A stretch of DNA of 55,179 nucleotides, from positions 1-55,179 of the forward strand of contig DATAHR010000139.1 of the NCBI GenBank assembly GCA_036263035.1, read 5' to 3'. Below the pieces are notes generated by a model that saw nothing but the letters and a program-made list of their open reading frames with translations, was not told the origin of the DNA and did not search any database. Below are positions 4,671-54,388 of the stretch, piece by piece (position 1 is the stretch's first letter; each line of letters starts with the position of its first letter). Source of the stretch: Gaiellales bacterium. GTDB taxonomy: Bacteria > Actinomycetota > Thermoleophilia > Gaiellales > JAICJC01. A program made the translations under genes and the position numbers.

Positions 4671-5755
4671 CCACGGTCGGGTTCCTGGGAGGCGGGCAGC
4701 TCGCCCGGATGATGGCGCTGGCCGGGATCCCGCTCGGGATCGCCTCGAGCTTCCTCGACCCCGCCGCCGACGCGTGCGCCGGCGTTGCGGGCGAGCTGAT
4801 CGTCGACGCCTATGACTCGCCGGAGGGGCTCGACCGGCTCGCAGCGAGCGCGGACGTGGTGACGTTCGAGTTCGAGTCGGTGCCGGCCAGCTCGGCCGAG
4901 CGGCTGGCCTCGCGGGTGGCGGTGCATCCGCCGCCGCGGGCGCTGGAGGTGGCACAGGATCGGCTGTTCGAGAAGCGGCTGTTCGAGCAGCTGGGCATCG
5001 AGGTGACCGGGTTCCTCGCGATCGACTCACAGCAGGAGCTGGATGCGGCCGGCCGGGCGGGCGTGCTGAAGACGCGGCGGCTCGGATACGACGGCAAGGG
5101 CCAGCGGGTGCTCGAGGGCGCGGGCGACGCCGAGGGCGCATTCGACGACCTCGGTGGCGTGCCGCTGCTGCTGGAGGATCTGGTGGCGTTCGACCGGGAG
5201 CTGTCGGCCATCGCCGTGCGCGGCCGCGACGGGGAGGTTCGCTGCTACCCGCTGGTGGAGAACCATCACGCGGACGGCATCCTGCGCGTCACCCACGCGC
5301 CTGCCCCCGGCCTGACACCGGAGCTGCAGGCGCTCGGCGAGCGGTACGTGACGGCGGTGCTCGAGGAGCTCGAGTACGTCGGCGTGCTCGCGCTCGAGCT
5401 GTTCCAGGCCGGGGACCGGCTGCTGGCCAACGAGATGGCCCCGCGGGTGCACAACTCCGGGCACTGGACGATCGAGGGTGCACAGACCAGCCAGTTCGAG
5501 AACCACATGCGGGCGGTGTGCGGACTGCCGCTTGGAGACGTGTCGGCCAGGGGCGAGTCGACGATGGTGAACCTGATCGGTGCCGTTCCCGACGCGGACG
5601 CGGTGCTGGCGGTCGACGGCGCGCATCTGCACCTCTACGGCAAGGCGCCGCGCCCGGGCCGCAAGGTCGGCCACGTGACCGTCACGAGCGGCGGCGACTG
5701 GCGTCGGATAGCGGAGCTGGCCGGTGCCCCGGCCGGCACCACGGCGGCCCGCTGA
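4667..5755 (+). CDS. purK: N5-carboxyaminoimidazole ribonucleotide synthase (ATP-grasp)
   Basis: [10 protein letters not shown]-terminus, ATP-grasp body, GTGA start/stop overlap with purE. Confidence 0.9.
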
Positions 5756-5784
5756 GCGGCCGTCAGGGCGCCGCCGCCGTACCT

Positions 5785-5963
5785 GTCACGCCGCGGTCAC
5801 AGAACGGTCACGCCCACCCGACAGGTGTTGGTCTCCAATAATTCGGGTGCGCGGCGCGTTCCGCTCAACGAGGCCGGTTGCGCGTCACGGATGTGTGACG
5901 GAAGCGCAACGGTCGCACGACAGGAGTCGGGCACCGTGTCGGGCGCCGTTACGGGTGCGTGAC
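5785..5963 (+). promoter_or_regulatory. conserved non-coding module, copy 1: (GTCAC)x3, 25 nt, AATAAT, 41 nt, GTCAC/GTGAC/GCAAC
   Basis: GTCAC at 5785, 5796 and 5807. 15-mer GGTCACGCCCACCCG at 5806-5820. 17-mer CTCCAATAATTCGGGTG at 5833-5849. Second triad at 5884, 5895 and 5906. It matches the reverse complement of 39475-39642 block by block with identical spacing. Confidence 0.6.
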
Positions 5964-5977
5964 GATTCCGTGAGCGG

Positions 5978-6121
5978 TCAGCGTGAGAACAGCCCGCGGC
6001 CGAGGAAGCCGGCCACGAGCGCGACCAGCAGCGCGATCAGGATCACCCACAGGGCGATCTTGATGGCACCGATCACACCCACGATCAGGATCAGCAGCAG
6101 AAGCAGAAGTAGCCAGATCAT
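5978..6121 (-). CDS. small hydrophobic membrane protein (47 aa), hypothetical
   Basis: Not in the supplied track (under 60 aa). ATG 6121, TGA 5978. Translation MIWLLLLLLLILIVGVIGAIKIALWVILIALLVALVAGFLGRGLFSR. Third codon positions are almost all G/C, as in real genes here. The SD is weak. Confidence 0.45.
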   Translation of the reverse strand: MIWLLLLLLLILIVGVIGAIKIALWVILIALLVALVAGFLGRGLFSR

Positions 6122-6184
6122 GCGCGGTCTATACCCCGCAGACGACGCGACTCACACACGTCGCCGGACGGTATCCTTGTCCGA

Positions 6185-7384
6185 ATGGCAGACATCGGCT
6201 TCGACGACGTAACCAAGATCTATGACGACGGCACCCGGGCCGTGAACTCCGTCGACCTGACCATCGATGACGGCACCCTCATGGTGCTCGTCGGGCCGTC
6301 CGGCTGCGGCAAGACCACGCTGCTGCGCATGGTGGCAGGGCTCGAGGAGATCACCGACGGCGAAATCCGGATCGGCGATCGGGTGATCAACGACGTGGAG
6401 GCGAAGAACCGCGACCTCGCGATGGTCTTCCAGAACTACGCGCTCTACCCGCACATGACGTGCTACGACAACATGGCGTTCGGCCTGAAGCTGCGGAAGG
6501 TTCCGAAGAAGGAGATCGACCGCCGCGTCCGCGAGACGGCGAAGACGCTGGGGCTCGAGGACCAGCTGCGCAAGAAGCCGAAGGCGCTCTCGGGCGGCCA
6601 GCGTCAGCGCGTGGCCATGGGCCGCGCCATCGTCCGCGAACCGAAGGCGTTCCTGATGGACGAGCCGCTGTCGAACCTCGACGCCAAGCTGCGAGTCCAG
6701 ATGCGCACGGAGATCTCGCGGATCCAGCGCGAGCTCGGCGTGACCATGATCTACGTCACGCACGACCAGACCGAGGCCATGACCATGGGCGACCGCGTGG
6801 CCGTCATGAACCGGGGCGTGCTGCAGCAGGTCGACAACCCGCAGGAGATGTACGACCGGCCGGCCAACCTGTTCGTGGCCGGGTTCATCGGCTCGCCCGC
6901 CATGAACATGGTGGAGGCGGACCTCGTCCGGGGCGACGGGGGCGCCGCCGCGGAGTTCGGCGGCGTCCGGCTGCCCATTCCCGAGCAGGTGTTCCAGGAG
7001 CGGACGGGGCTGTCCGGCTATGTCGGCAAGCGCGTGGCCCTCGGCATCCGGCCCGAGGACATCGAGGATCCCGAGCACGCCAGCCGGCGGATCGAGGGAG
7101 CCGACCTGCCGGTGACGGTCGAACACCGCGAGGCGATGGGGTCAGAGGTGTACGTTCACTTCGACGTCGAGGCGCCGCCGGTCGTCACGGACGACACGCG
7201 GGACCTGGCCGCGGACGCCGACCTGCTCGACGAGATCGAGCAGGAGGCGGACAGCACGAGGACGGCGTTCGTCGCGCGGCTGAACCCGCGCACGTCGGCG
7301 GCGCTGGGACAGCCGATCCGGCTCCAGGTCGACACCAACCGAGCGCATTTCTTCGATCTCCAGACGGGGAACGCGATCCGGTAG
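6185..7384 (+). CDS. sugar-type ABC transporter ATP-binding protein (MalK/UgpC/MsiK-like), no cognate permease adjacent
   Basis: Walker A GPSGCGKTT, LSGGQRQR, FLMDEPLSNLD, C-terminal MalK-type regulatory domain. TATCCT lies 7 nt upstream of the ATG. Confidence 0.9.
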   Translation: MADIGFDDVTKIYDDGTRAVNSVDLTIDDGTLMVLVGPSGCGKTTLLRMVAGLEEITDGEIRIGDRVINDVEAKNRDLAMVFQNYALYPHMTCYDNMAFGLKLRKVPKKEIDRRVRETAKTLGLEDQLRKKPKALSGGQRQRVAMGRAIVREPKAFLMDEPLSNLDAKLRVQMRTEISRIQRELGVTMIYVTHDQTEAMTMGDRVAVMNRGVLQQVDNPQEMYDRPANLFVAGFIGSPAMNMVEADLVRGDGGAAAEFGGVRLPIPEQVFQERTGLSGYVGKRVALGIRPEDIEDPEHASRRIEGADLPVTVEHREAMGSEVYVHFDVEAPPVVTDDTRDLAADADLLDEIEQEADSTRTAFVARLNPRTSAALGQPIRLQVDTNRAHFFDLQTGNAIR

Positions 7385-35301: not shown

Positions 35302-38300
35302 CTATTCCGTGGAGACGCCCTGATCACCCTGCATCCCGACCGGCACGACGGCGCGGAAGCACCAGCGGGCGTCGCGGCGCAGGCGGGCTGCCTCGGCCGC
35401 CTCGGCCGGCTGCCCCGATGCGCGCAGCTCCTGTTCGTATGCGCCGAGCAGCTCCCCGACGTCCCGCTCTCCGTCGGCGTCGAGGGGCTCGAGGGCCACG
35501 CGCGCAGCAGCGGCGAAGCGCCGGCGGATGGCCGTCTCGTCCAATCCACGCTCCGGCTCGTGGCGCAGATAGACCACGCCGCCCGTCATGCCCGCGAAGG
35601 CCCACGGCCCGACGTCGCCGAGCACCACGGCCCGGCCGGCGGTCATGTACTCGAATGCGAAGCCCTTGATCTGCGCCGCGGCCGCCGCCGGCCGCGACCG
35701 CACCGGCCAGCGCGGCTCGCCGCCGATCACCATGTCGGCGCCGGACAGGCGGATGCCTGCGCGGGCGTCGGCCTCTCCCTGCACGATCAGCAGGCCCTCC
35801 TGCGCGCCATACGCGAACCCCTTCCCCACGTGGCCGCCTCGCAGCACGCCGTCGGCATCCGGCGCCTTGAGGACGACCACGCGAGCGCCGCACGCGCCCT
35901 TCGCCGTTCCATCCTGCGCCCCGCCGCGCACGCGCACCGAGAGCCCCGCCGGCGCGAATGCCGCGAGCCCGGAGCCGGCCACGCTGCCGGTTGCCACGTC
36001 GACCTCCGCCGTGCGGGCGTCGAACCCGGGCTCGAGCACGGTCTGCGCGAAGGCGGTGAGCAGCGCACGATCGCTGCCCGACGCCACCGCCGGCAGCTGC
36101 ACGACCTGCTCCCGTGCCGCCCGCAGCCTGCCGGCCAGGACATGCGTGAGCGCCGGCGTGCGGCAGCCGGGCCGGCGGGGGCGCGACGGTGCGGCCGGCT
36201 CCAGCATCGGCGCGAGGTCGATCCGGTCGCGGCCGCGAGCCTGCACCAGCAGGTCCGACCTGCCCACCAGCTCCTGCGCCGAGGAGCCGCCGAGGCCGGC
36301 GACCAGCCGTCGCAGCTCGGCGGCCGTCTGGTCGAAGAAGCGCCACAGCCTGGTCACACCGTCCGCGGGCTCGACGGGTGTGAACCGCTTCAGACCGCGC
36401 GCCGCGGCCTCGTTCTCGTCCTCGATCTGCGTGGCGATGCCGACGTGGCAGGTGTCCGCCTGGCACGCTCGGCAGACGGTACAGCCGAGGGCGACCATCG
36501 ACATGGTGCCGAAGCCGGTCCGGTTGGCGCCGAGCAGCATGAGCTTGAGGACGTCAGCCGCGGTGCGGACGCCGCCGTCGGCCCACAGCTCGACACCGTC
36601 GCGGAGCCCGGCCTCGCTGAGCGCCCGGTGGGCGAGCACGAGGCCCAGGTCGCTGGGCAGGCCGGCGTGTCGCAGCGCGTGGCGCCGCGCGGCGCCGGTG
36701 CCGCCGTCGTAGCCCGACAGCGTGATCACGTCCGCGCCGGCCTTGGCGATGCCGACGGCGATGGTGCCGATGCCGCTGACCACGGGCACCTTCACGCCGA
36801 CGCGCACGTCCGGGTTGCTCGCCCGCAGCTCCTCGACGATCTGGGCCAGGTCTTCGATCGAATAGAGGTCGTGGTTGTTCGACGGGGAGATCAGGTCGAC
36901 GCCGGGCGAGGCGGACCGGGCGGCGGCGACGCGGGCGGTGACCTTGCTCCCCGGCAGGTGGCCGCCCTCCCCCGGCTTCGCGCCCTGGCCGATCTTGATC
37001 TCGATCATGCGGCAGGACGCGAGCATGCGGGCGTTCACGCCGAAGCGGCCGCTGGCCACCTGCTGCGCGCGGTTGCGCGGGCTCCAGCCGATCAGCTCGG
37101 GCAGCTCGCCGCCCTCGCCGTTCATCGCGATGATGTCGAGGCGGGTCGCGGCGGCGAGGTAGGCGCGAAAGGCCGCCTCGCCCTGGGAGCCGAAGGACAT
37201 GGCGCTGATCACGAAGGGCAGCGCGTGGTCTCCGACCCGCAGGTCGACAGACTCCGGGTCGCGTGCCGGACGTGTGCGCAGATCGAGCAGATGGCGGAGC
37301 GCCACCGGGTGCTCACGCTCGACATCCGTTGCCTGATCGGAGAACGAGACGTAATCGCCGCGGCCGTCGGCAACCGCGCCGGCCGCCTTCCACAGCTTCG
37401 GCGCCATCCGGAAAACCTGGCGGGGGCGGTCCGCCCGCGCCGGCCGGCGCGGCGGCAGGCTGCCCGGCAGCAGCGCGGGACACGGGAACTCCCGGGCCGC
37501 GTCGGGGTGCAGGCCGATCGAGGCGAAGGCCGGGCCGTAGCCGGCAAGCTCGTGCGTGCCCATCGTGGAGAGCACCTTCTCGAGGCCCTTCTCGAGCGCC
37601 GCCTGCAGCCGCCGCCAGCGCGCCGGCCCGGCCAGCGACCAGAGCGCGTAGGGCTCGACCGCGGCGGCGCCGGTGCCGAGTGCGACGGCGATGTCGTGCA
37701 GGTTGCGGAGGCCGCCGGCCGCCAGCGCGACGGATGCGCGCCGGTGCAGCCTGCGGTCGCGCAGCCGGCGGGTGACCATTGCCAGCGCCAGGTGCGGGTC
37801 GAGGTCGGCGCCGAGCCGGTCGTCGAGCAGGATCAGCGCCGCGCCGTCGAGGACGGCCGCCTCCGCGGCGTCGGCGACGTCGTGGCGGAGAGGCAGGCGG
37901 AGCCAGGGCAGGCCGTCGGGCGAGGGCAGCAGCGGGGAGTCGAGCTGCCACATGGACGCGGGCGCCCCCGGCGCGGGACGCCGGCCGGCGAGCCCGCGGA
38001 GGGAGAACTGCTCGCGCTCGCGATCGCGGTCGATGGCCGGATTGGTGACGACGGCGACCTCCTCCTTGAAGTGATCGGAGACGGTTGCGCCGTCGTCGAA
38101 CACGGCCAGCGGGCCGTCGTAGCCGAGGGAGCCGATCGGCTCCTCACCGGTGTCGGCCATGGACTCGAGCATGGCCAGGTCGTCGCGGGTAAAGGCGTGG
38201 TCGGCCGGCTCGACCGGGGCAAAGGCGGGGCGGCCGAGGCGGGGGCGGGTGAACCGCGAGCGGCGAGCCGCGCCGGCCAGGGACGTCGAGAGGGAGGGTT

Positions 38301-39378
38301 GACGAGCCCCCGGCCGGCGCAGATCGATCAGCACCCGCTCACCGGGTGCAAGCGGTGCGGGCTCGTCGTCGAGCTCGCTGACGTTGAGCACGCCCGGCTC
38401 CGACGACAGCCACAGCTCGCCGGGCGTGCGCATCCGCCAGAGCGGGCGCAGCCCGAGTCGGTCGACCGCGGCGCAGAGCGTGTCACCGCTGCGGGCGAGC
38501 AGGGCGGCGGGCCCCTGGGCGACGGGGCCGATGACGGCGCGGTGGTAGCGGTCGAGGGGCGTCGCGGGGCGGACCGGCGGCAGCAGCATGGCGAGCACCT
38601 CGGCCAGGTTGAGGCCGCGGTCGAGCAGGAGGGCGACCAGCAGGTCGAGGTCCTGGGTATCGCTCGCACCCGGGAGAGGGCCGGCGCCGAGGCCGGGCAG
38701 CTCGAGGCGCAGCCGGCGGATGGTGTTGATCTCGCCGTTGTGGGCGATGCGACCGAAGGGCTGCACGCGCTCGAAGGCGGGGAGCGTGTTGGTGGAGTAG
38801 CGGCTGTGGGCGACGGCCACGCGGGTGCCGAACAGCGGGTGCTGGAGGTCGCGGGCGAACGCGGTCAGGGTGCCGGGGTCGCCGAGCACCTTGTAGACGC
38901 AGCTGCTTCGAGAGAGGGAGGCGACGTGGATGCCGGCGCGCTCGAGCGCAAGCCACGCCTGCAGGAGCGAGGCATCCTCGGGGACGAGCAGGGCCGCCTG
39001 CCAGAGCGCCGGCGTGCCATCGCGGCCGTCTGGGCCGATCGCAGAGGGGTCGACGTCCTGCTCGAGCAGGGCCAGCAGCTCGAGCCCGGTCGCGCGGAGT
39101 GCCTGCTCCGGGTCCTCCGCGGCCAGGTGGGCAACCGCGAAGGCCCGGCTGTCCACGACGTCGCTTCGCAGGCGGTCGCGCCAGAGCCTGCGGGGGATAT
39201 CGACCTGGACGCCGCAGCCGTCGCCCTCACCGCCCGTGCCGCCGGCACGGTGCGCCATTCGCTCGAGCGCAGCCACCGCGTGGCGCAGAGGCCACGCCGA
39301 GGCGCGGCCGTTGCGGGCCACCACCGCGGCAAGCGCACAGGCGTCGTGCTCGGGCTGAGCTGTCCGGTTCGTCGGCAA
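35302..39378 (-). CDS. gltB: glutamate synthase large-subunit-like protein (1358 aa)
   Basis: Ntn amidotransferase Cys in PEHDACA. FMN domain (ISPSNNHDLYSIEDL, GYDGGTGA). 3Fe-4S motif GCTVCRACQADTCHVGIATQ. C-terminal GXGXG-type domain. TTG start, and no gltD adjacent. Confidence 0.9.
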   Translation of the reverse strand: MPTNRTAQPEHDACALAAVVARNGRASAWPLRHAVAALERMAHRAGGTGGEGDGCGVQVDIPRRLWRDRLRSDVVDSRAFAVAHLAAEDPEQALRATGLELLALLEQDVDPSAIGPDGRDGTPALWQAALLVPEDASLLQAWLALERAGIHVASLSRSSCVYKVLGDPGTLTAFARDLQHPLFGTRVAVAHSRYSTNTLPAFERVQPFGRIAHNGEINTIRRLRLELPGLGAGPLPGASDTQDLDLLVALLLDRGLNLAEVLAMLLPPVRPATPLDRYHRAVIGPVAQGPAALLARSGDTLCAAVDRLGLRPLWRMRTPGELWLSSEPGVLNVSELDDEPAPLAPGERVLIDLRRPGARQPSLSTSLAGAARRSRFTRPRLGRPAFAPVEPADHAFTRDDLAMLESMADTGEEPIGSLGYDGPLAVFDDGATVSDHFKEEVAVVTNPAIDRDREREQFSLRGLAGRRPAPGAPASMWQLDSPLLPSPDGLPWLRLPLRHDVADAAEAAVLDGAALILLDDRLGADLDPHLALAMVTRRLRDRRLHRRASVALAAGGLRNLHDIAVALGTGAAAVEPYALWSLAGPARWRRLQAALEKGLEKVLSTMGTHELAGYGPAFASIGLHPDAAREFPCPALLPGSLPPRRPARADRPRQVFRMAPKLWKAAGAVADGRGDYVSFSDQATDVEREHPVALRHLLDLRTRPARDPESVDLRVGDHALPFVISAMSFGSQGEAAFRAYLAAATRLDIIAMNGEGGELPELIGWSPRNRAQQVASGRFGVNARMLASCRMIEIKIGQGAKPGEGGHLPGSKVTARVAAARSASPGVDLISPSNNHDLYSIEDLAQIVEELRASNPDVRVGVKVPVVSGIGTIAVGIAKAGADVITLSGYDGGTGAARRHALRHAGLPSDLGLVLAHRALSEAGLRDGVELWADGGVRTAADVLKLMLLGANRTGFGTMSMVALGCTVCRACQADTCHVGIATQIEDENEAAARGLKRFTPVEPADGVTRLWRFFDQTAAELRRLVAGLGGSSAQELVGRSDLLVQARGRDRIDLAPMLEPAAPSRPRRPGCRTPALTHVLAGRLRAAREQVVQLPAVASGSDRALLTAFAQTVLEPGFDARTAEVDVATGSVAGSGLAAFAPAGLSVRVRGGAQDGTAKGACGARVVVLKAPDADGVLRGGHVGKGFAYGAQEGLLIVQGEADARAGIRLSGADMVIGGEPRWPVRSRPAAAAAQIKGFAFEYMTAGRAVVLGDVGPWAFAGMTGGVVYLRHEPERGLDETAIRRRFAAAARVALEPLDADGERDVGELLGAYEQELRASGQPAEAAEAARLRRDARWCFRAVVPVGMQGDQGVSTE

Positions 39379-39474
39379 GGAGGTAGTGAATCATATGAGT
39401 CGTCACAACGCAACTTGTGAAACACTTGTTACGACTCGCGAGCGTTCCGTGACCAACGAACACGTCCCGAACGG

Positions 39475-39642
39475 GTCACAGCGGCCGTAACGGTGTCAAA
39501 GACCCCACGTGCGGTCGTGACGGCGGCGTGACTCACCTGTGACACGCGAGGCCCCAACCAGAGCCAAACCGCTTCCTCACCCGAATTATTGGAGTCAAAG
39601 CCCCACCGGGTGGGCGTGACCGTGGCGTGACGGTTTCGTGAC
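39475..39642 (-). promoter_or_regulatory. conserved non-coding module, copy 2, upstream of gltB
   Basis: On the plus strand, GTGAC at 39517, 39528, 39539, 39616, 39627 and 39638, all in 11-bp register. ATTATT at 39585-39590. 17-mer at 39578-39594 and 15-mer at 39607-39621, both identical to the reverse complement of copy 1. Confidence 0.6.
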
Positions 39643-40802: not shown

Positions 40803-43355
<2,553 letters not shown>

Positions 43356-47373: not shown

Positions 47374-47751
47374 TCACGCGACGCGAGTGCGGCGCCCGCG
47401 GACTGTGACTGCGCCAAGGAGGATCAGGGCCAGTCCGAACGCGCTGAACGCGCCGATGCCCGCCGACGTCCAGTCGAAGCCGCTGCTCGTCCCGAGGATC
47501 ACGACAGGCGGCGACACCGCAACCGTGCCGCCATGCTCGCTGCTCGGACGCACCGGCACGATCAGCGGCCCGTTGGTCGAGCTCGGCGAGCCGTGCTCGG
47601 TGCTGTGCAGCACAGGGACGATCAGCCGCTCCGCGCCTGAGCTCTGCCCGGCGCTCTGCGCGGGCACGTGATCTGCCCACGCCGACGGAACCGACAACGC
47701 GGTCACGGCGAGCCCCAGCACCACAATCCGGATGACGATCGATCGACGCAT
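47374..47751 (-). CDS. small secreted, C-terminally anchored protein with His-containing repeats
   Basis: Signal peptide MRRSIVIRIVVLGLAVTALSVPSAWA. Repeats LIVPVLHSTEHGS and LIVPVRPSSEHGG. C-terminal TM helix plus RGRRTR tail. Confidence 0.55.
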   Translation of the reverse strand: MRRSIVIRIVVLGLAVTALSVPSAWADHVPAQSAGQSSGAERLIVPVLHSTEHGSPSSTNGPLIVPVRPSSEHGGTVAVSPPVVILGTSSGFDWTSAGIGAFSAFGLALILLGAVTVRGRRTRVA

Positions 47752-47885
47752 CTTCGCTCCTTGTCCGGCGGCCACAGGATGCAGCCGCGATGGGCGGATG
47801 GTGCGGGCGCTCGGTAACGGATCGGTCACCGACCGGCCATTTTGCGGCTGGTTCCGCGGAATTCGGCGTGATACGTTCGCCGCGG

Positions 47886-50800
47886 ATGGAGCCGCTGACC
47901 TTCGGCATCCTCGGGCCGCTCCAGGCCCACCGCGGCACCGAATCGCTGCCGGTCGGCTCCGGCCGGCAGGCGGAGCTGATGGCGCTGCTCGTGACGCGCC
48001 GCAACACGGCCGTTCCGACCGAGCGCCTGATCGACGACCTGTGGGACGGCCGACCGCCGGACACCGCGGCCAAGATCGTCCAGAACGCGGTTTCCGGCCT
48101 TCGTCGCGCGCTTGGAGACGAATCCGGGGCCGTGCTCGTCACCCAGGGGCGCGGCTACATGCTGGTCACCCCCGCGGGTGGCACCGACGTCGACCGTGCC
48201 GCGGAGCTGCTCGAGCAGGGACGCGCCGAGCTGGCGGCGGGCAACGCCGATGGGGCCGCACGCACGTTGCGAGCGGCGCTCGCTCTCTGGCGCGGGCCGC
48301 CGCTGCCCGAGGTCGCGTACCGATCGTTCGCGCGCGATGAGATCGCGCGTCTCGACGAACTGCGGCTCGTCGTTCTGGAGGAACGGATCGCGGCCGACCT
48401 CGCCCGTGGCGAACGGGCGGAGCTCGTGCCCGAGCTCGAACAGCTCGTGGCCCGCCACCCACTGCGGGAGGGCTTCCGAGGGCAGCTGATGCTTGCGCTC
48501 TACCGGGCAGGCCGCCAGGCGCGGGCCCTGCAGGTGTACAGCGAAGGCCGCATCGCGCTCTCCGAGGAGCTCGGGATCGAGCCCGGCGAGAACCTGAAGC
48601 GCCTGGAGCGGGCAATCCTCGATCACGACCCGGATCTGGACGGGCCGTCGCGGCCCAGGGCGCTTCCCGTCGTCCGCGGCCGGGAGCGGCTGGCGCTGGC
48701 CGCCGGGGCGATCCTGCTGGCAGCGGCCGCAGCCGCCGCGGTGTGGATGTCACAGTCGGGCGCAGCCCCTGCCGTCACGGTGGGCGGGAACTCGATCGGC
48801 CTGATCGATCCGGCGTCGGGCCGGATCCTTGCCGACTTTCCGGCCGGCGATGCACCGAGCAAGGTCGTGACCACGGGTGACGCGGCCTGGGCCCTGAGCG
48901 AGAACGATGGCACCGTCACGCGCATGGATCTCACCACGGGCAGGCGACGCACGTACCGGCTGACCGCAGGACGCGCGGCGGACATGGTGCTGGGCGGCGG
49001 CTGGCTATGGATCAGCGTCGTCGGCAACGCGCCCGCGGGAAACGGTGCGACAGCCGACGTGGTGCGCCTCGACCCGGACACGATGACGGACGAGGGAACC
49101 GTCCCGCTTCCGGGAGCAGGGGCGGTGGGCGATCCGGCGCCGCTGGCCTACTCGGCCGGCGAGGAGACGCTGTGGGCCGCCGCCTTCGGCGACCTGAGCG
49201 CGATCAACCCGATCACGCGCCGAAGAACACCGGCCGCACACGATGTCGATGCCGGCGCACTGGCGAGCGGCCTCGGTGCGGTGTGGGCAACGCCAGCGGA
49301 GAGCTCCGATCCCCGCCTCTCGCGCATCGACCCGGCGACCGGGCGCGTACAACGCATCGCGCTTCCCGTTCAATCCACCGGATCGCTGGCCGTGGCTGGA
49401 GATGCGGTCTGGGTCGCGGATCCGCTCAGCGGCGACGTGTGGCGCGTCGACCCCGCCGCGGCCGGGTGGCCCCAGCGCATACCGGTGGGCATGTCGGCGC
49501 TCGGCGTCTCGCCGGCCGGCACCGGCGTCTGGGTCGCGGACGGCGTTTCCGGAACGATCGCGCGCATCTCGTCCCACGACGGACGTCTGGCGGTCGACCG
49601 CTTTCCGATCGGGGAGACACCCCGTTCGGTGGCCGCGGGCACGGCCGGCGCTCTGGTGGCGGTGGCGCCGGGCGGTGGCCCGCCGGCGCTGACGGGGAGC
49701 GTGCCGTTGCACGGCCTGCCCTCCGCCGACTGCGGGCCGCTGCTGCACGGCACGGGCGAGCCACAGCGCCTGATCGCAGCGGATTTCCAGCTTGGAGGGG
49801 TCCTGGCGTCTGCAACCTTGCCGATGCGCCAGGCGATCGTCTACACCCTGCGGCAGCGCGACTTCCGGGCCGGGTCGTACCGAGTCGGGTTCCAGGCCTG
49901 CGACGACACAGGCGAAGACGGGTACTGGGATGGCCAACGGTGCGCAAGCAATGCCCGGCGGTTTGCGCACACCCCCGAGCTGATCGGGCTGATCGGGCCG
50001 TTCAACTCGGGCTGTGCCAAGGAGGAGCTGGCACTGCTCAACAGGGCTGGGCCGCTTGCGGTGATCTCGCCGTCAGCGTCGTATCCCGGGTTCACACATG
50101 CCGGGCCCGGGACCCGGCCGGGAGAACCGGCAATCTACCGGCCGAGCGGCGTCACCGGCTTCGCGCGGGTGATCCCGAGCGATGACATGGAGGGCATCGC
50201 CCTCGGCCAGCTCGCAATCCAGCTCGGGCTGCGCCATGTGTACGTGTATCGCAATCCCGACAACGACTACAGCGCTGCTGTCGGCGCCGCGTTCGCCCGG
50301 ACGGCCCGGTCAGCCGGCATCCGGGTGCTCGACTCGCCGTCGTATGCGTGGCGCGCAGATCTGGGCCGGCGGCTTCGGGACCGGGGGTTCGATGGTGTCG
50401 TCATCGCCGACACGCTCGACACGACGACCGGGCGGATCATCCGCGAGACAGGCAAGGGCAGTCCCGGCCGTCCACTGACCCTGCTCGCCGGTGCATTCAT
50501 CATGGTCGCAGGGGGTGACCTGGCCGACGCCGTGGGCGAGCGCGGGACCGGCATGTACGTGGCCTGGGAGGGCGTCTCCAACCCGCTCCGCCAGCTGCCG
50601 CCCGCGGGAACGCGGTTCGCCCGCACGTTCTCCGCGACCCAGCCGAACGCGGACATCGGCTTCTACACCCCCTACGCCGCACAGGCTGCCGAGGTGCTCC
50701 TGAAGGCCATCGCGAGCTCGGACGGGAGCCGTGCGTCCGTGTCACGGGAGCTCCTGCGCGTGCGGATCAGGGACGGCATCCTCGGCCCGGTGCAGTTCGC

Positions 50801-50912
50801 AAGCAACGGTGACATGACGATCAACCGGCTGCCGATCCTCCGCTTCAACTCCGACGCTCCCTACTCGCCGTCGGTGTATCAGCTGATCCGCGTAGCGCCG
50901 GCAGCGGACTGA
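47886..50912 (+). CDS. membrane-spanning SARP (wHTH + BTAD) regulator with extracytoplasmic beta-propeller-like and periplasmic-binding-protein (LivK-type) domains
   Basis: N-terminus ILGPLQA...RLIDDLW and BTAD (ALWRGPPL, ARHPLREG). One TM helix (LALAAGAILLAAAAAAAVWM). Repeated ...VWVAD... strands. C-terminal type-1 PBP-like region (IGLIGPFNSGCAKE). Start ATG 47886. Confidence 0.8.
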   Translation: MEPLTFGILGPLQAHRGTESLPVGSGRQAELMALLVTRRNTAVPTERLIDDLWDGRPPDTAAKIVQNAVSGLRRALGDESGAVLVTQGRGYMLVTPAGGTDVDRAAELLEQGRAELAAGNADGAARTLRAALALWRGPPLPEVAYRSFARDEIARLDELRLVVLEERIAADLARGERAELVPELEQLVARHPLREGFRGQLMLALYRAGRQARALQVYSEGRIALSEELGIEPGENLKRLERAILDHDPDLDGPSRPRALPVVRGRERLALAAGAILLAAAAAAAVWMSQSGAAPAVTVGGNSIGLIDPASGRILADFPAGDAPSKVVTTGDAAWALSENDGTVTRMDLTTGRRRTYRLTAGRAADMVLGGGWLWISVVGNAPAGNGATADVVRLDPDTMTDEGTVPLPGAGAVGDPAPLAYSAGEETLWAAAFGDLSAINPITRRRTPAAHDVDAGALASGLGAVWATPAESSDPRLSRIDPATGRVQRIALPVQSTGSLAVAGDAVWVADPLSGDVWRVDPAAAGWPQRIPVGMSALGVSPAGTGVWVADGVSGTIARISSHDGRLAVDRFPIGETPRSVAAGTAGALVAVAPGGGPPALTGSVPLHGLPSADCGPLLHGTGEPQRLIAADFQLGGVLASATLPMRQAIVYTLRQRDFRAGSYRVGFQACDDTGEDGYWDGQRCASNARRFAHTPELIGLIGPFNSGCAKEELALLNRAGPLAVISPSASYPGFTHAGPGTRPGEPAIYRPSGVTGFARVIPSDDMEGIALGQLAIQLGLRHVYVYRNPDNDYSAAVGAAFARTARSAGIRVLDSPSYAWRADLGRRLRDRGFDGVVIADTLDTTTGRIIRETGKGSPGRPLTLLAGAFIMVAGGDLADAVGERGTGMYVAWEGVSNPLRQLPPAGTRFARTFSATQPNADIGFYTPYAAQAAEVLLKAIASSDGSRASVSRELLRVRIRDGILGPVQFASNGDMTINRLPILRFNSDAPYSPSVYQLIRVAPAAD

Positions 50913-54073: not shown

Positions 54074-54388
54074 AGATGATTGATCGATATCTCCGTGAAG
54101 TCCAAGGCGCAAGGCGGAGCCTTGCGCCGGTCACGAGCGATCTGCGATCACGCAGATCGCGAGTGGGCGAGAACCGAGCCTGGCCAGGTGCAAGGCGGAT
54201 GCCTTGCACCGGTCATGAGCGATCTGCGATTACGCAGATCGCGAATGGCAGGGAGCGTCAATATCGGGAATATTGGCGCGACCGAGGACGCCGCCAGGCG
54301 ACGGTTCGCAGCCGTAGCCACCCACACCGTCTCGAACCCTCTACCTCTCGCAGCGGCCAGGCACGCAAGAGATATCGATCAATCATCT
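54074..54388. mobile_element. MITE-like non-autonomous element, 315 bp, perfect 20-bp terminal inverted repeats
   Basis: AGATGATTGATCGATATCTC at 54074-54093 is the exact reverse complement of 54369-54388. Inside are two 82-bp tandem units, each with two 10-bp-stem hairpins. It has no coding capacity. It lies between the folK stop and the ICMT-gene start. Confidence 0.6.

Follow-up and report, generated by a model that had tools for sequence, protein, structure and literature searches.

Several described systems resemble parts of the element that is reported here. PHO boxes have the sequence G(G/T)TCAY in common. In parC of plasmid R1, clusters of 11-bp direct repeats flank a central core with an AT-rich -10-like element, and ParR binds there cooperatively to form one nucleoprotein complex. 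The MIRU minisatellites of mycobacteria are intergenic tandem units of 50-100 bp that are spread over tens of loci, lie at operon junctions in one orientation and overlap small open reading frames (ORFs). The boxes of MtrA consist of a 9-nt direct repeat with a 2-nt spacer, GTCACAgcg or nGTnACc (PMC4285127, PMC6265350), and those of GlnR read gTnAc-n6-GaAAc or GTnAC-n6-GTnAC (PMC10704036). Here, we analyzed a stretch of 55,179 nt from a Gaiellales bacterium (contig DATAHR010000139.1, hereafter the window), which carries two diverged copies of a non-coding module made of GTCAC boxes and AT-rich core sequences. Both copies belong to a GTCAC-box family that is a previously undescribed, lineage-specific, dispersed intergenic repeat of a Gaiellales sub-lineage, and it is close to certain that this family exists and that it is independent of the genes beside it. 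The family is old, is retained at orthologous loci and is placed regardless of the direction or function of its neighbours. Repeat families are one of the main sources of non-coding conservation that lacks an explanation in bacterial genomes, and none had previously been described for the Gaiellales/Thermoleophilia, which are abundant uncultured soil actinobacteria; literature searches on the core sequence and on Gaiella repeats returned nothing relevant.

Like the operators of MtrA, GlnR, PhoP and AfsQ1, the family is composed of 11-bp direct repeats with a gTnAC or GTCACA core, arranged in arrays of two to several, with both orientations possible (PMC6265350, PMC4285127, PMC10704036). Those operators are short and arise separately at each locus, upstream of the genes of a regulon, whereas the boxes of the family sit inside a homologous 200-nt cassette, together with extra invariant blocks, at dozens of unrelated intergenic sites and next to genes of any direction. 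With REP/BIME, ERIC, BOX and Correia elements and with miniature inverted-repeat transposable elements (MITEs), the family shares a multi-copy, strictly intergenic, lineage-specific and modular character with genome-specific subtypes. It differs from REP-type repeats, whose unit is an imperfect palindrome of 20-40 nt, in having no such palindrome, as palindrome tests stayed at or near the shuffled expectation, and from interspersed repeats in showing phased 11-nt direct repeats and rigid spacing, with no clear terminal inverted repeats, target duplications or recent copies. MIRU are likewise actinobacterial intergenic tandem units dispersed over tens of loci; unlike them, the family has essentially two units, is not tied to operon junctions or to one orientation, involves no overlapping small ORFs and shows no sequence similarity to them. 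Two clusters of 11-bp direct repeats around an AT-rich core are also the plan of parC, which is a single plasmid locus beside parMR, whereas the family is found at dozens of places on chromosomes, none of them close to partition genes. The family is unusual in that its conserved parts resemble transcription-factor boxes with rigid helical spacing, and not hairpins or transposon ends, in its age, and in staying at orthologous loci although its filler is randomised.

Anatomy of the GTCAC-box module

The two copies of the window have the following parts.

5785..5965, plus strand: module copy 1, two direct units of ~99 nt each
5785..5811, plus strand: triad 1 of copy 1, GTCAC at 5785, 5796 and 5807 with an 11-nt period
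5828..5847, plus strand: unit-A core of copy 1, TTGGTCTCCAATAATTCGGG, the TTGGTC subtype of the family core TTTGACTCCAATAATTGGG, with AATAAT at 5837-5842
5861..5873, plus strand: CCGCTCAACGAGG of copy 1, corresponding to the family block GGCTCAACCAgG
5884..5910, plus strand: triad 2 of copy 1, GTCAC at 5884, GTGAC at 5895 and GCAAC at 5906
5927..5935, plus strand: unit-B core of copy 1, TCGGGCACC, family form TTTGACACC
5948..5963, plus strand: right-end boxes of copy 1, GTTAC at 5948 and GTGAC at 5959, sites in inverted orientation as in many family members
39462..39642, minus strand: module copy 2, two direct units
39616..39642, minus strand: triad 1 of copy 2, minus-strand GTCAC at 39642, 39631 and 39620
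39580..39599, minus strand: unit-A core of copy 2, TTTGACTCCAATAATTCGGG
39517..39543, minus strand: triad 2 of copy 2, minus-strand GTCAC at 39543, 39532 and 39521
39492..39500, minus strand: unit-B core of copy 2, TTTGACACC
39464..39479, minus strand: right-end boxes of copy 2, GTGAC (39479-39475) and GGGAC (39468-39464)

Copies 1 and 2 align without gaps over 181 nt, with 117 identical positions, and together form the longest inverted repeat of the window (81 nt at 77%). Each of them is at the same time an internal direct repeat with a unit of ~99 nt, in which a triad and filler precede a TTTGAC(T/A)CC-like core, and the two triads start 99 nt (9 x 11) apart. Within the window, GTSAC-N6-GTSAC is confined to the two module loci; when up to two mismatches are allowed, the triad pattern has 8 matches in the window against 0.82 expected, 7 of the 8 inside the modules. 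The coordinates of the original prediction all proved correct, including the GTCAC, GTGAC and GCAAC starts of copy 1, the plus-strand GTGAC starts of copy 2 (39638, 39627, 39616, 39539, 39528 and 39517), the shared 15-mer (5806-5820 / 39621-39607) and 17-mer (5833-5849 / 39594-39578), the 12 differing bases that separate these two blocks in both copies, and the gaps of 25 nt and 41 nt between the triads and AATAAT, which are again the same in both. The same prediction had read the offset between triads as exact 7 x 11 phasing, with all six sites on one face of the helix; this is a trait of the window copies and not a property of the family, because 17 of 22 arrays repeat with a period of 98 nt and only 3, both window copies among them, with one of 99 nt. 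At 10.5 bp per turn, 99 bp in any case correspond to 9.4 turns.

Across the family, the module measures ~200 nt and comprises two direct units of 98-99 nt, in which three cGTCAC boxes with an 11-nt period are followed by a 16-nt filler, the core TTTGACTCCAATAATTGG and a GGCTCAACCA block. The consensus unit is cGTCACaannC GTCACannnC GTCACgCCC - N~12 - TTTGACTCCAATAATTGGG - N~15 - GGCTCAACCAgGC - N~12, after which the next triad begins. Boxes and core are near-invariant and rigidly spaced, and the filler is free in sequence and fixed in length; at least the opening ~58 nt of the unit, a stretch that runs through the core, align without gaps, and unit 1 has its few gaps in the later filler or around GGCTCAACCA. 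The family box has the logo cGTCAC(a/g), and among the 59 modules collected by the scans described below, relaxed matches stand at offsets 0, 11, 22, 98/99, 109/110 and 120 in 41, 51, 59, 41, 33 and 17 modules, respectively, while control offsets have a box in none (0/59). The centre of the core, CCAATAATTGG, is a palindrome in most relatives, relative to which the AT block of the window copies has one extra C. The palindromic AT core presents a -10-like hexamer on both strands (AATAAT and AATTAT), and the variants that occur beside AATAAT (AACAAT, AATAGT and AATTGT) keep A2 and T6 of the -10 hexamer.

Two units are present in most modules, the number of cores per array is one or two, and at one and the same locus two units are present in L039 vs one in L049. 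As a rule, the second unit closes with TTTGACACC, behind which inverted boxes follow (GTGAC-N6-GTGAC or GTTGC); the other type of end is a second AT core with the tail GGGTCGCCGGATTGCGGTATTGAC. A right end GTGAC-N6-GTTGC that mirrors the left end GCAAC/GTCAC-N6-GTCAC is found in only 10-15 of the 59 modules (reverse sites at offsets 162 and 173). The filler behind box 3 comes in the types GGGGAGTG, CATGAGTG, GGTGGGGC and GACAGGTG, which track the genome and not the locus, e.g., GGGGAGTG and CATGAGTG in BP_420, and GGTGGGGC together with the TTGGTC subtype in SMAG_U987. At L021 (positions 1-560), a single unit stops directly after CCAATAATT and is followed by an AT-rich, operator-like region and a MarR-family gene, a layout from which it follows that a unit can be truncated at the AT core. 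A coding reading of the 99-nt unit as 33 codons was rejected in view of the period of mostly 98 nt, an in-frame TAA in one frame and the block-wise conservation.

Distribution, conservation and placement

In a scan of one genome per species for site 2, site 3 and CTCCAAYAAT at the observed spacing, 29 stretches were recovered, and 24 loci (25 matches) belonged to five Gaiellales metagenome-assembled genomes (MAGs), namely BP_420 with 9 loci, SMAG_U987 with 8, MFD08700.bin.3.300 with 4, BP_418 with 2 and Co_metawrap_1954 with 1. The remaining 5 stretches come from unrelated phyla, lack any other family feature and are chance matches. A metagenome scan with site 3 plus TTTGACTCCAATAAT yielded 38 further soil stretches, and 59 non-redundant modules were left from both scans after removal of near-duplicates. 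Further copies and orthologous conservation, on whose absence the original prediction was to fall, thus both exist. No module was present in ~80 kb of sequence from relatives within the Gaiellales that have an MsiK of 80-87% identity, and the family is for this reason regarded as confined to a sub-lineage. GCA_036403155.1 (L005) is one example of Gaiellales that are free of the repeat. Searches of plasmid and phage collections by blastn gave no match to the modules, and scans of IMG/VR gave one chance match in phage coding DNA and one unrelated GGTCACC iteron region. The latter (L080, positions 360-600 of a viral contig) holds GGTCACC iteron clusters in both orientations, three of them at an 11-nt period, and is probably a replication origin. 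The possibility that the module itself is an iteron origin or a parC-type centromere was rejected in view of its dozens of chromosomal loci, the empty plasmid and phage searches and the unrelated nature of the IMG/VR matches.

Many modules lie at orthologous loci of different genomes, with flanking genes that are 75-92% identical at the DNA level. The identity of the filler is 0.46-0.48 between orthologues, beside flanking genes of 80-90% identity, vs 0.41-0.43 between paralogues, and that of boxes and core between orthologues is 0.85-0.97. Since an all-against-all blastn returned a single inter-locus paralogue pair, at 79%, the family is old and has not been recently mobile, and the fact that old paralogues have kept their motifs and spacing, with the filler randomised, speaks for selection at each locus. 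Two suggestions made from the window pair alone are supported, namely that it is not a recent duplication and that diverged filler with fixed spacing points to selection on a protein-DNA architecture. No target-site duplications flanking the modules were seen in the alignments, and in an empty-site comparison the sole indel between the near-identical contigs L066 and L072 lies in the downstream gene and not at the module. One module is interrupted in its AT core by an ISL3-family insertion sequence that is unrelated to the family (L045, 38-1474; transposase domains by Pfam), with perfect 24-bp terminal inverted repeats GGCGGTCCTGTTGTTGGTGTGGGT and an 8-bp target duplication CAATAATT; in this GC-rich DNA, insertion seems to favour the AT core.

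The gltB locus is free of bias from the search patterns, because it was reached through protein homology. There, copy 2 is flanked by the stop of rpiR (39887) on one side and the proximal promoter of a gltB-like gene (start 39378) on the other, within the conserved block clpC-rpiR-module-gltB-like-radA-disA. Boxes 2, 3, 4 and 5, GACTCCAAYAAT and TTTGACACC are kept in the window, L035, L009 and L010, and the filler is different; in L008 half of the module is lost and it is decaying, and in L011 there is no module. The gltB-like gene (35302-39378, minus strand) encodes a short homologue of the glutamate-synthase large subunit (1358 aa vs the usual ~1500 aa) with all four domains present, has a TTG start without a Shine-Dalgarno sequence and is followed by radA-disA, not gltD; a distinct glutamate-synthase large-subunit subfamily of 1320-1360 aa exists in soil Gaiellales.

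Copy 1 is located between the purK stop (5755, with purE-purK upstream) and the 3' end of a 47-aa ORF (5978-6121, minus strand), and an MsiK/UgpC-like ABC ATPase gene starts at 6185. The 47-aa ORF is almost wholly hydrophobic (MIWLLLLLLLILIVGV...), is called as a gene in two Joint Genome Institute (JGI) contigs and has no Pfam match; a transcript that left copy 1 in the forward direction would run antisense to this ORF. In JGI soil contigs, the ABC ATPase is found again together with its context, and the nearest named proteins come from Gaiellales MAGs. Orthologues of the ATPase in relatives have quite different neighbourhoods, with synteny not conserved and no module there, and because synteny is lost and the relatives are module-free, this locus yields no phylogenetic footprint.

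The neighbours of the 59 modules are functionally unrelated and include genes for an NAD-epimerase, BacA, an E1 dehydrogenase, RecQ, DedA, an MBL-fold protein, an ABC ATPase, a LuxR-PBP, a GGDEF protein, PGI and a glycosyltransferase, as well as the 3' ends of PBP_2, AI-2E transporter, GntR, amidohydrolase, RecG and cNMP-binding genes. After orthologues had been collapsed by hand, ~31 loci were left, of which 19 are in co-directional gaps (11 modules in the same sense as the genes and 8 in the opposite sense), 6 in divergent and 6-7 in convergent gaps; the background of gap types in the same DNA is 63% co-directional, 18% divergent and 19% convergent. At L017 the module lies between two 3' ends, with both sides confirmed by Pfam, and copy 1 would be a further convergent case if the 47-aa ORF is real. 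The modules thus occupy all three gap types at background frequency and in both orientations, and a link to gene direction is not supported. What the family has in common with operator arrays is the 11-bp centre-to-centre direct repeat and the half-site gTnAC or GTCACA; a coherent regulon with promoter-proximal arrays in the sense of the gene was not found, as neighbours are heterogeneous and gap types and orientation follow the background.

A putative docking platform and its rivals

The age of the family, its retention at orthologous loci and its randomised filler point to a function at the level of the host that does not depend on the genes next to the modules. We favour the reading, to which as a whole we give an even chance, that the module is a selection-maintained, lineage-specific repeat acting as DNA, a putative multi-site platform for the docking of proteins. 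The elements would act as double-stranded DNA and not as RNA, with a rigid arrangement of sites on which one or more sequence-specific DNA-binding proteins may dock. The phased boxes could be bound head-to-tail by a winged-helix response regulator of the MtrA/GlnR/PhoP class, and the AT-rich palindromic core might serve as a second binding or bending site. The outcome would be independent of orientation: the module might titrate a global regulator or concentrate it locally, regulate or insulate at long range, or help to structure the chromosome, and it would supply no dedicated promoter to the adjacent gene. In a more specific form, which we consider conceivable yet improbable, the module would be a domesticated, selection-maintained cassette that carries phased response-regulator boxes of the MtrA/GlnR/PhoP class and a palindromic AT core to dozens of chromosomal sites and nucleates a cooperative nucleoprotein complex, analogous to ParR on parC, acting as a regulator sink, as an insulator or enhancer, or in chromosome structuring, in either orientation. 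If so, it would represent a portable binding-site array that rewires or buffers a global regulon in a deep-branching actinobacterial lineage, and if a response regulator does bind, the family would show how binding-site arrays can spread as a cassette. For the annotation of MAGs, the boxes should not count as evidence for GlnR or PhoP control of adjacent genes.

Several points weigh against the docking platform. Box 3 and the AT core were demanded by the scan patterns, and the conservation of the core is for this reason partly inflated. The gene calls are heuristic (GC3-based ORFs), with Pfam confirming only a subset. The half-site gTnAC is too short to assign a regulator, as judged by sequence GlnR, MtrA, PhoP and AfsQ1 would all fit, and which protein binds is something that we infer. 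A promoter in the AT core is possible on either strand, given the A2 and T6 that its variants keep, and the random orientation of the modules would also fit stand-alone small-RNA genes.

Among the rivals, the one that was originally proposed takes each unit as an activator-dependent promoter, in which an OmpR/PhoB-type regulator binds triad 1 at about -62, -51 and -40, AATAAT serves as the -10, and the transcript runs into the downstream gene or forms a small RNA. We think this improbable, though several features speak for it. Triad 1 is placed where class II activators sit, the hexamer variants are compatible with a -10, about half of the loci have a co-directional downstream gene, and the boxes match those of GlnR and MtrA, with gltB being a known GlnR target in other actinomycetes. 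The match of the boxes to the gTnAC/11-bp class of OmpR/PhoB-type regulators is supported; a gene-specific GlnR/PhoP promoter serving gltB or the ABC ATPase is not, as the neighbours of the 59 members are functionally unrelated and downstream genes have no common theme. A promoter or 5'-UTR element should shun convergent gaps and prefer one sense, and the family does neither (8 co-directional loci with the module in opposite sense, and 6-7 loci between convergent genes), which argues against the promoter model. The strongest conservation, TTTGACTCC, would land in the spacer between -35 and -10, and scans of the window for sigma-70 promoters and intrinsic terminators detected none, nor was an RNA structure found.

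Both window genes in question moreover have promoters of their own. The gltB-like gene is preceded by a proximal element (window 39390-39432, minus strand) with tandem 11-nt units, GTAAC (39432-39428), N6 and TTCAC (39421-39417), and with TATGAT (39395-39390), which 11 nt separate from the TTG start at 39378. All six orthologous loci have this element in invariant form; it is similar to the GlnR box of M. smegmatis (t/gTAAC-n6-Gc/aAAC), is separate from the module and is likely to be the real regulatory site of the gltB-like gene. It persists in L011, where the module is missing, and a role of the module as the gltB promoter is not supported. The msiK-like gene has a TATCCT-N7-ATG promoter; upstream of this ABC ATPase (window 6160-6187), TATCCT lies 7 nt before the ATG with no Shine-Dalgarno sequence, a leaderless-type arrangement.

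A MITE-like relic, or a slowly active non-autonomous element, is a second rival that we rate as unlikely. Its boxes would be transposase binding sites, and its conservation would stem from the needs of transposition and not from a host function. Multi-copy, strictly intergenic occurrence with background-like placement and random orientation is what such an element would show, and the right end GTGAC-N6-GTTGC that inverts the left-end GCAAC-N6-GTCAC in 10-15 of the 59 modules, the filler types that track the genome, and the absent and half-deleted modules of L011 and L008 are all in keeping with it. Against this stand the lack of near-identical paralogues (the single pair being at 79%) and of any visible target-site duplication, and the direct, not inverted, arrangement of the two units; the only transposase found is that of the unrelated ISL3 element inside a module, and plasmid, phage and IMG/VR collections gave no match. 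Orthologous copies with intact cores and saturated filler, in addition, need selection in place.

Stand-alone small-RNA genes on the opposite strand are more doubtful still. Here, TGGTTGAGCC would provide a -35 (TTGAGC) and AATTAT, 18 nt further on, a -10, and the RNA would carry GUGAC every 11 nt, e.g., as a protein sponge. This reverse-strand reading (TTGAGC-N18-AATTAT) covers more of the conserved blocks than the forward one, as the GGCTCAACCA block, the AT core and the conserved GGAGTCAAA are explained as -35, -10 and start region, and random orientation and convergent gaps suit independent genes. Both hexamers are weak, however, matching the consensus at only 4/6 positions, in many copies GCCCAA gives TTGGGC, the spacer in the window copies is 19 nt, and the promoter scan was empty. 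Searches of the window and 16 family loci against Rfam, with its gathering thresholds and an E-value threshold and with the msiK motif included, brought only tRNAs to threshold; the best match within 5700-6250 had E=1.1 and 13.9 bits. RNAalifold on 21 units gave -0.33 kcal/mol, 0 compensatory pairs and no consensus fold, and z-scores of the minimum free energy were weak and alike on both strands, at about -1.0 and -1.2. An arm-swap test between the copies (z = -0.7 and -0.5) indicated no partner-specific complementarity. The small-RNA alternative of the original prediction is thus left with no Rfam match, consensus fold, covariation, strand-specific folding signal or terminator.

Two candidate hairpins were also rejected. 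The CACCCG/CGGGTG hairpin around AATAAT, to which the window copies had pointed, together with filler palindromes, has a mean stem of 4.1 bp vs 3.3 bp in shuffled sequence, with most loci individually non-significant, and a hairpin or terminator anchored at the unit-B core TTTGACACC has a mean of 3.9 bp vs 3.6 bp shuffled.

Promoters of ECF41-type sigma factors, with the consensus TGTCACA-N16±1-CGTC (PMC3426412) formed by box 1 and the start of box 3, are very improbable. All copies with a C in front of box 3 contain cGTCACA-N15-CGTC. In both window copies, however, the sequence is GTCAC(G)...GGTC and not CGTC, T seldom stands before box 1, the three-fold repeat and the invariant core are left unexplained, ECF41 regulons are reported as a single operon, and the orientation of the modules to genes is random. 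Sites for sigma-54, SigB/SigF, BldD, BldM, DnaA, CRP, HspR (HAIR), PafBC and IHF were set aside for misfits in spacing or sequence.

Other features of the window

A gene for a large SARP/AfsR-type regulator with Trans_reg_C and BTAD domains lies at 47736-50909 on the plus strand; regulators of this type also bind direct repeats with an 11-bp period. In clpC, an internal direct repeat of 135 nt with 76% identity (42985-43119 and 43210-43344) corresponds to the duplicated Clp_N domains. Two 48-nt copies that are 92% identical and 82 nt apart (54119-54166 and 54201-54248) lie between a PEMT/ICMT-like methyltransferase gene and folK (HPPK), and each of them holds a perfect 10-bp hairpin, GCGATCTGCG-ATCA-CGCAGATCGC; this repeat is unrelated to the GTCAC family.

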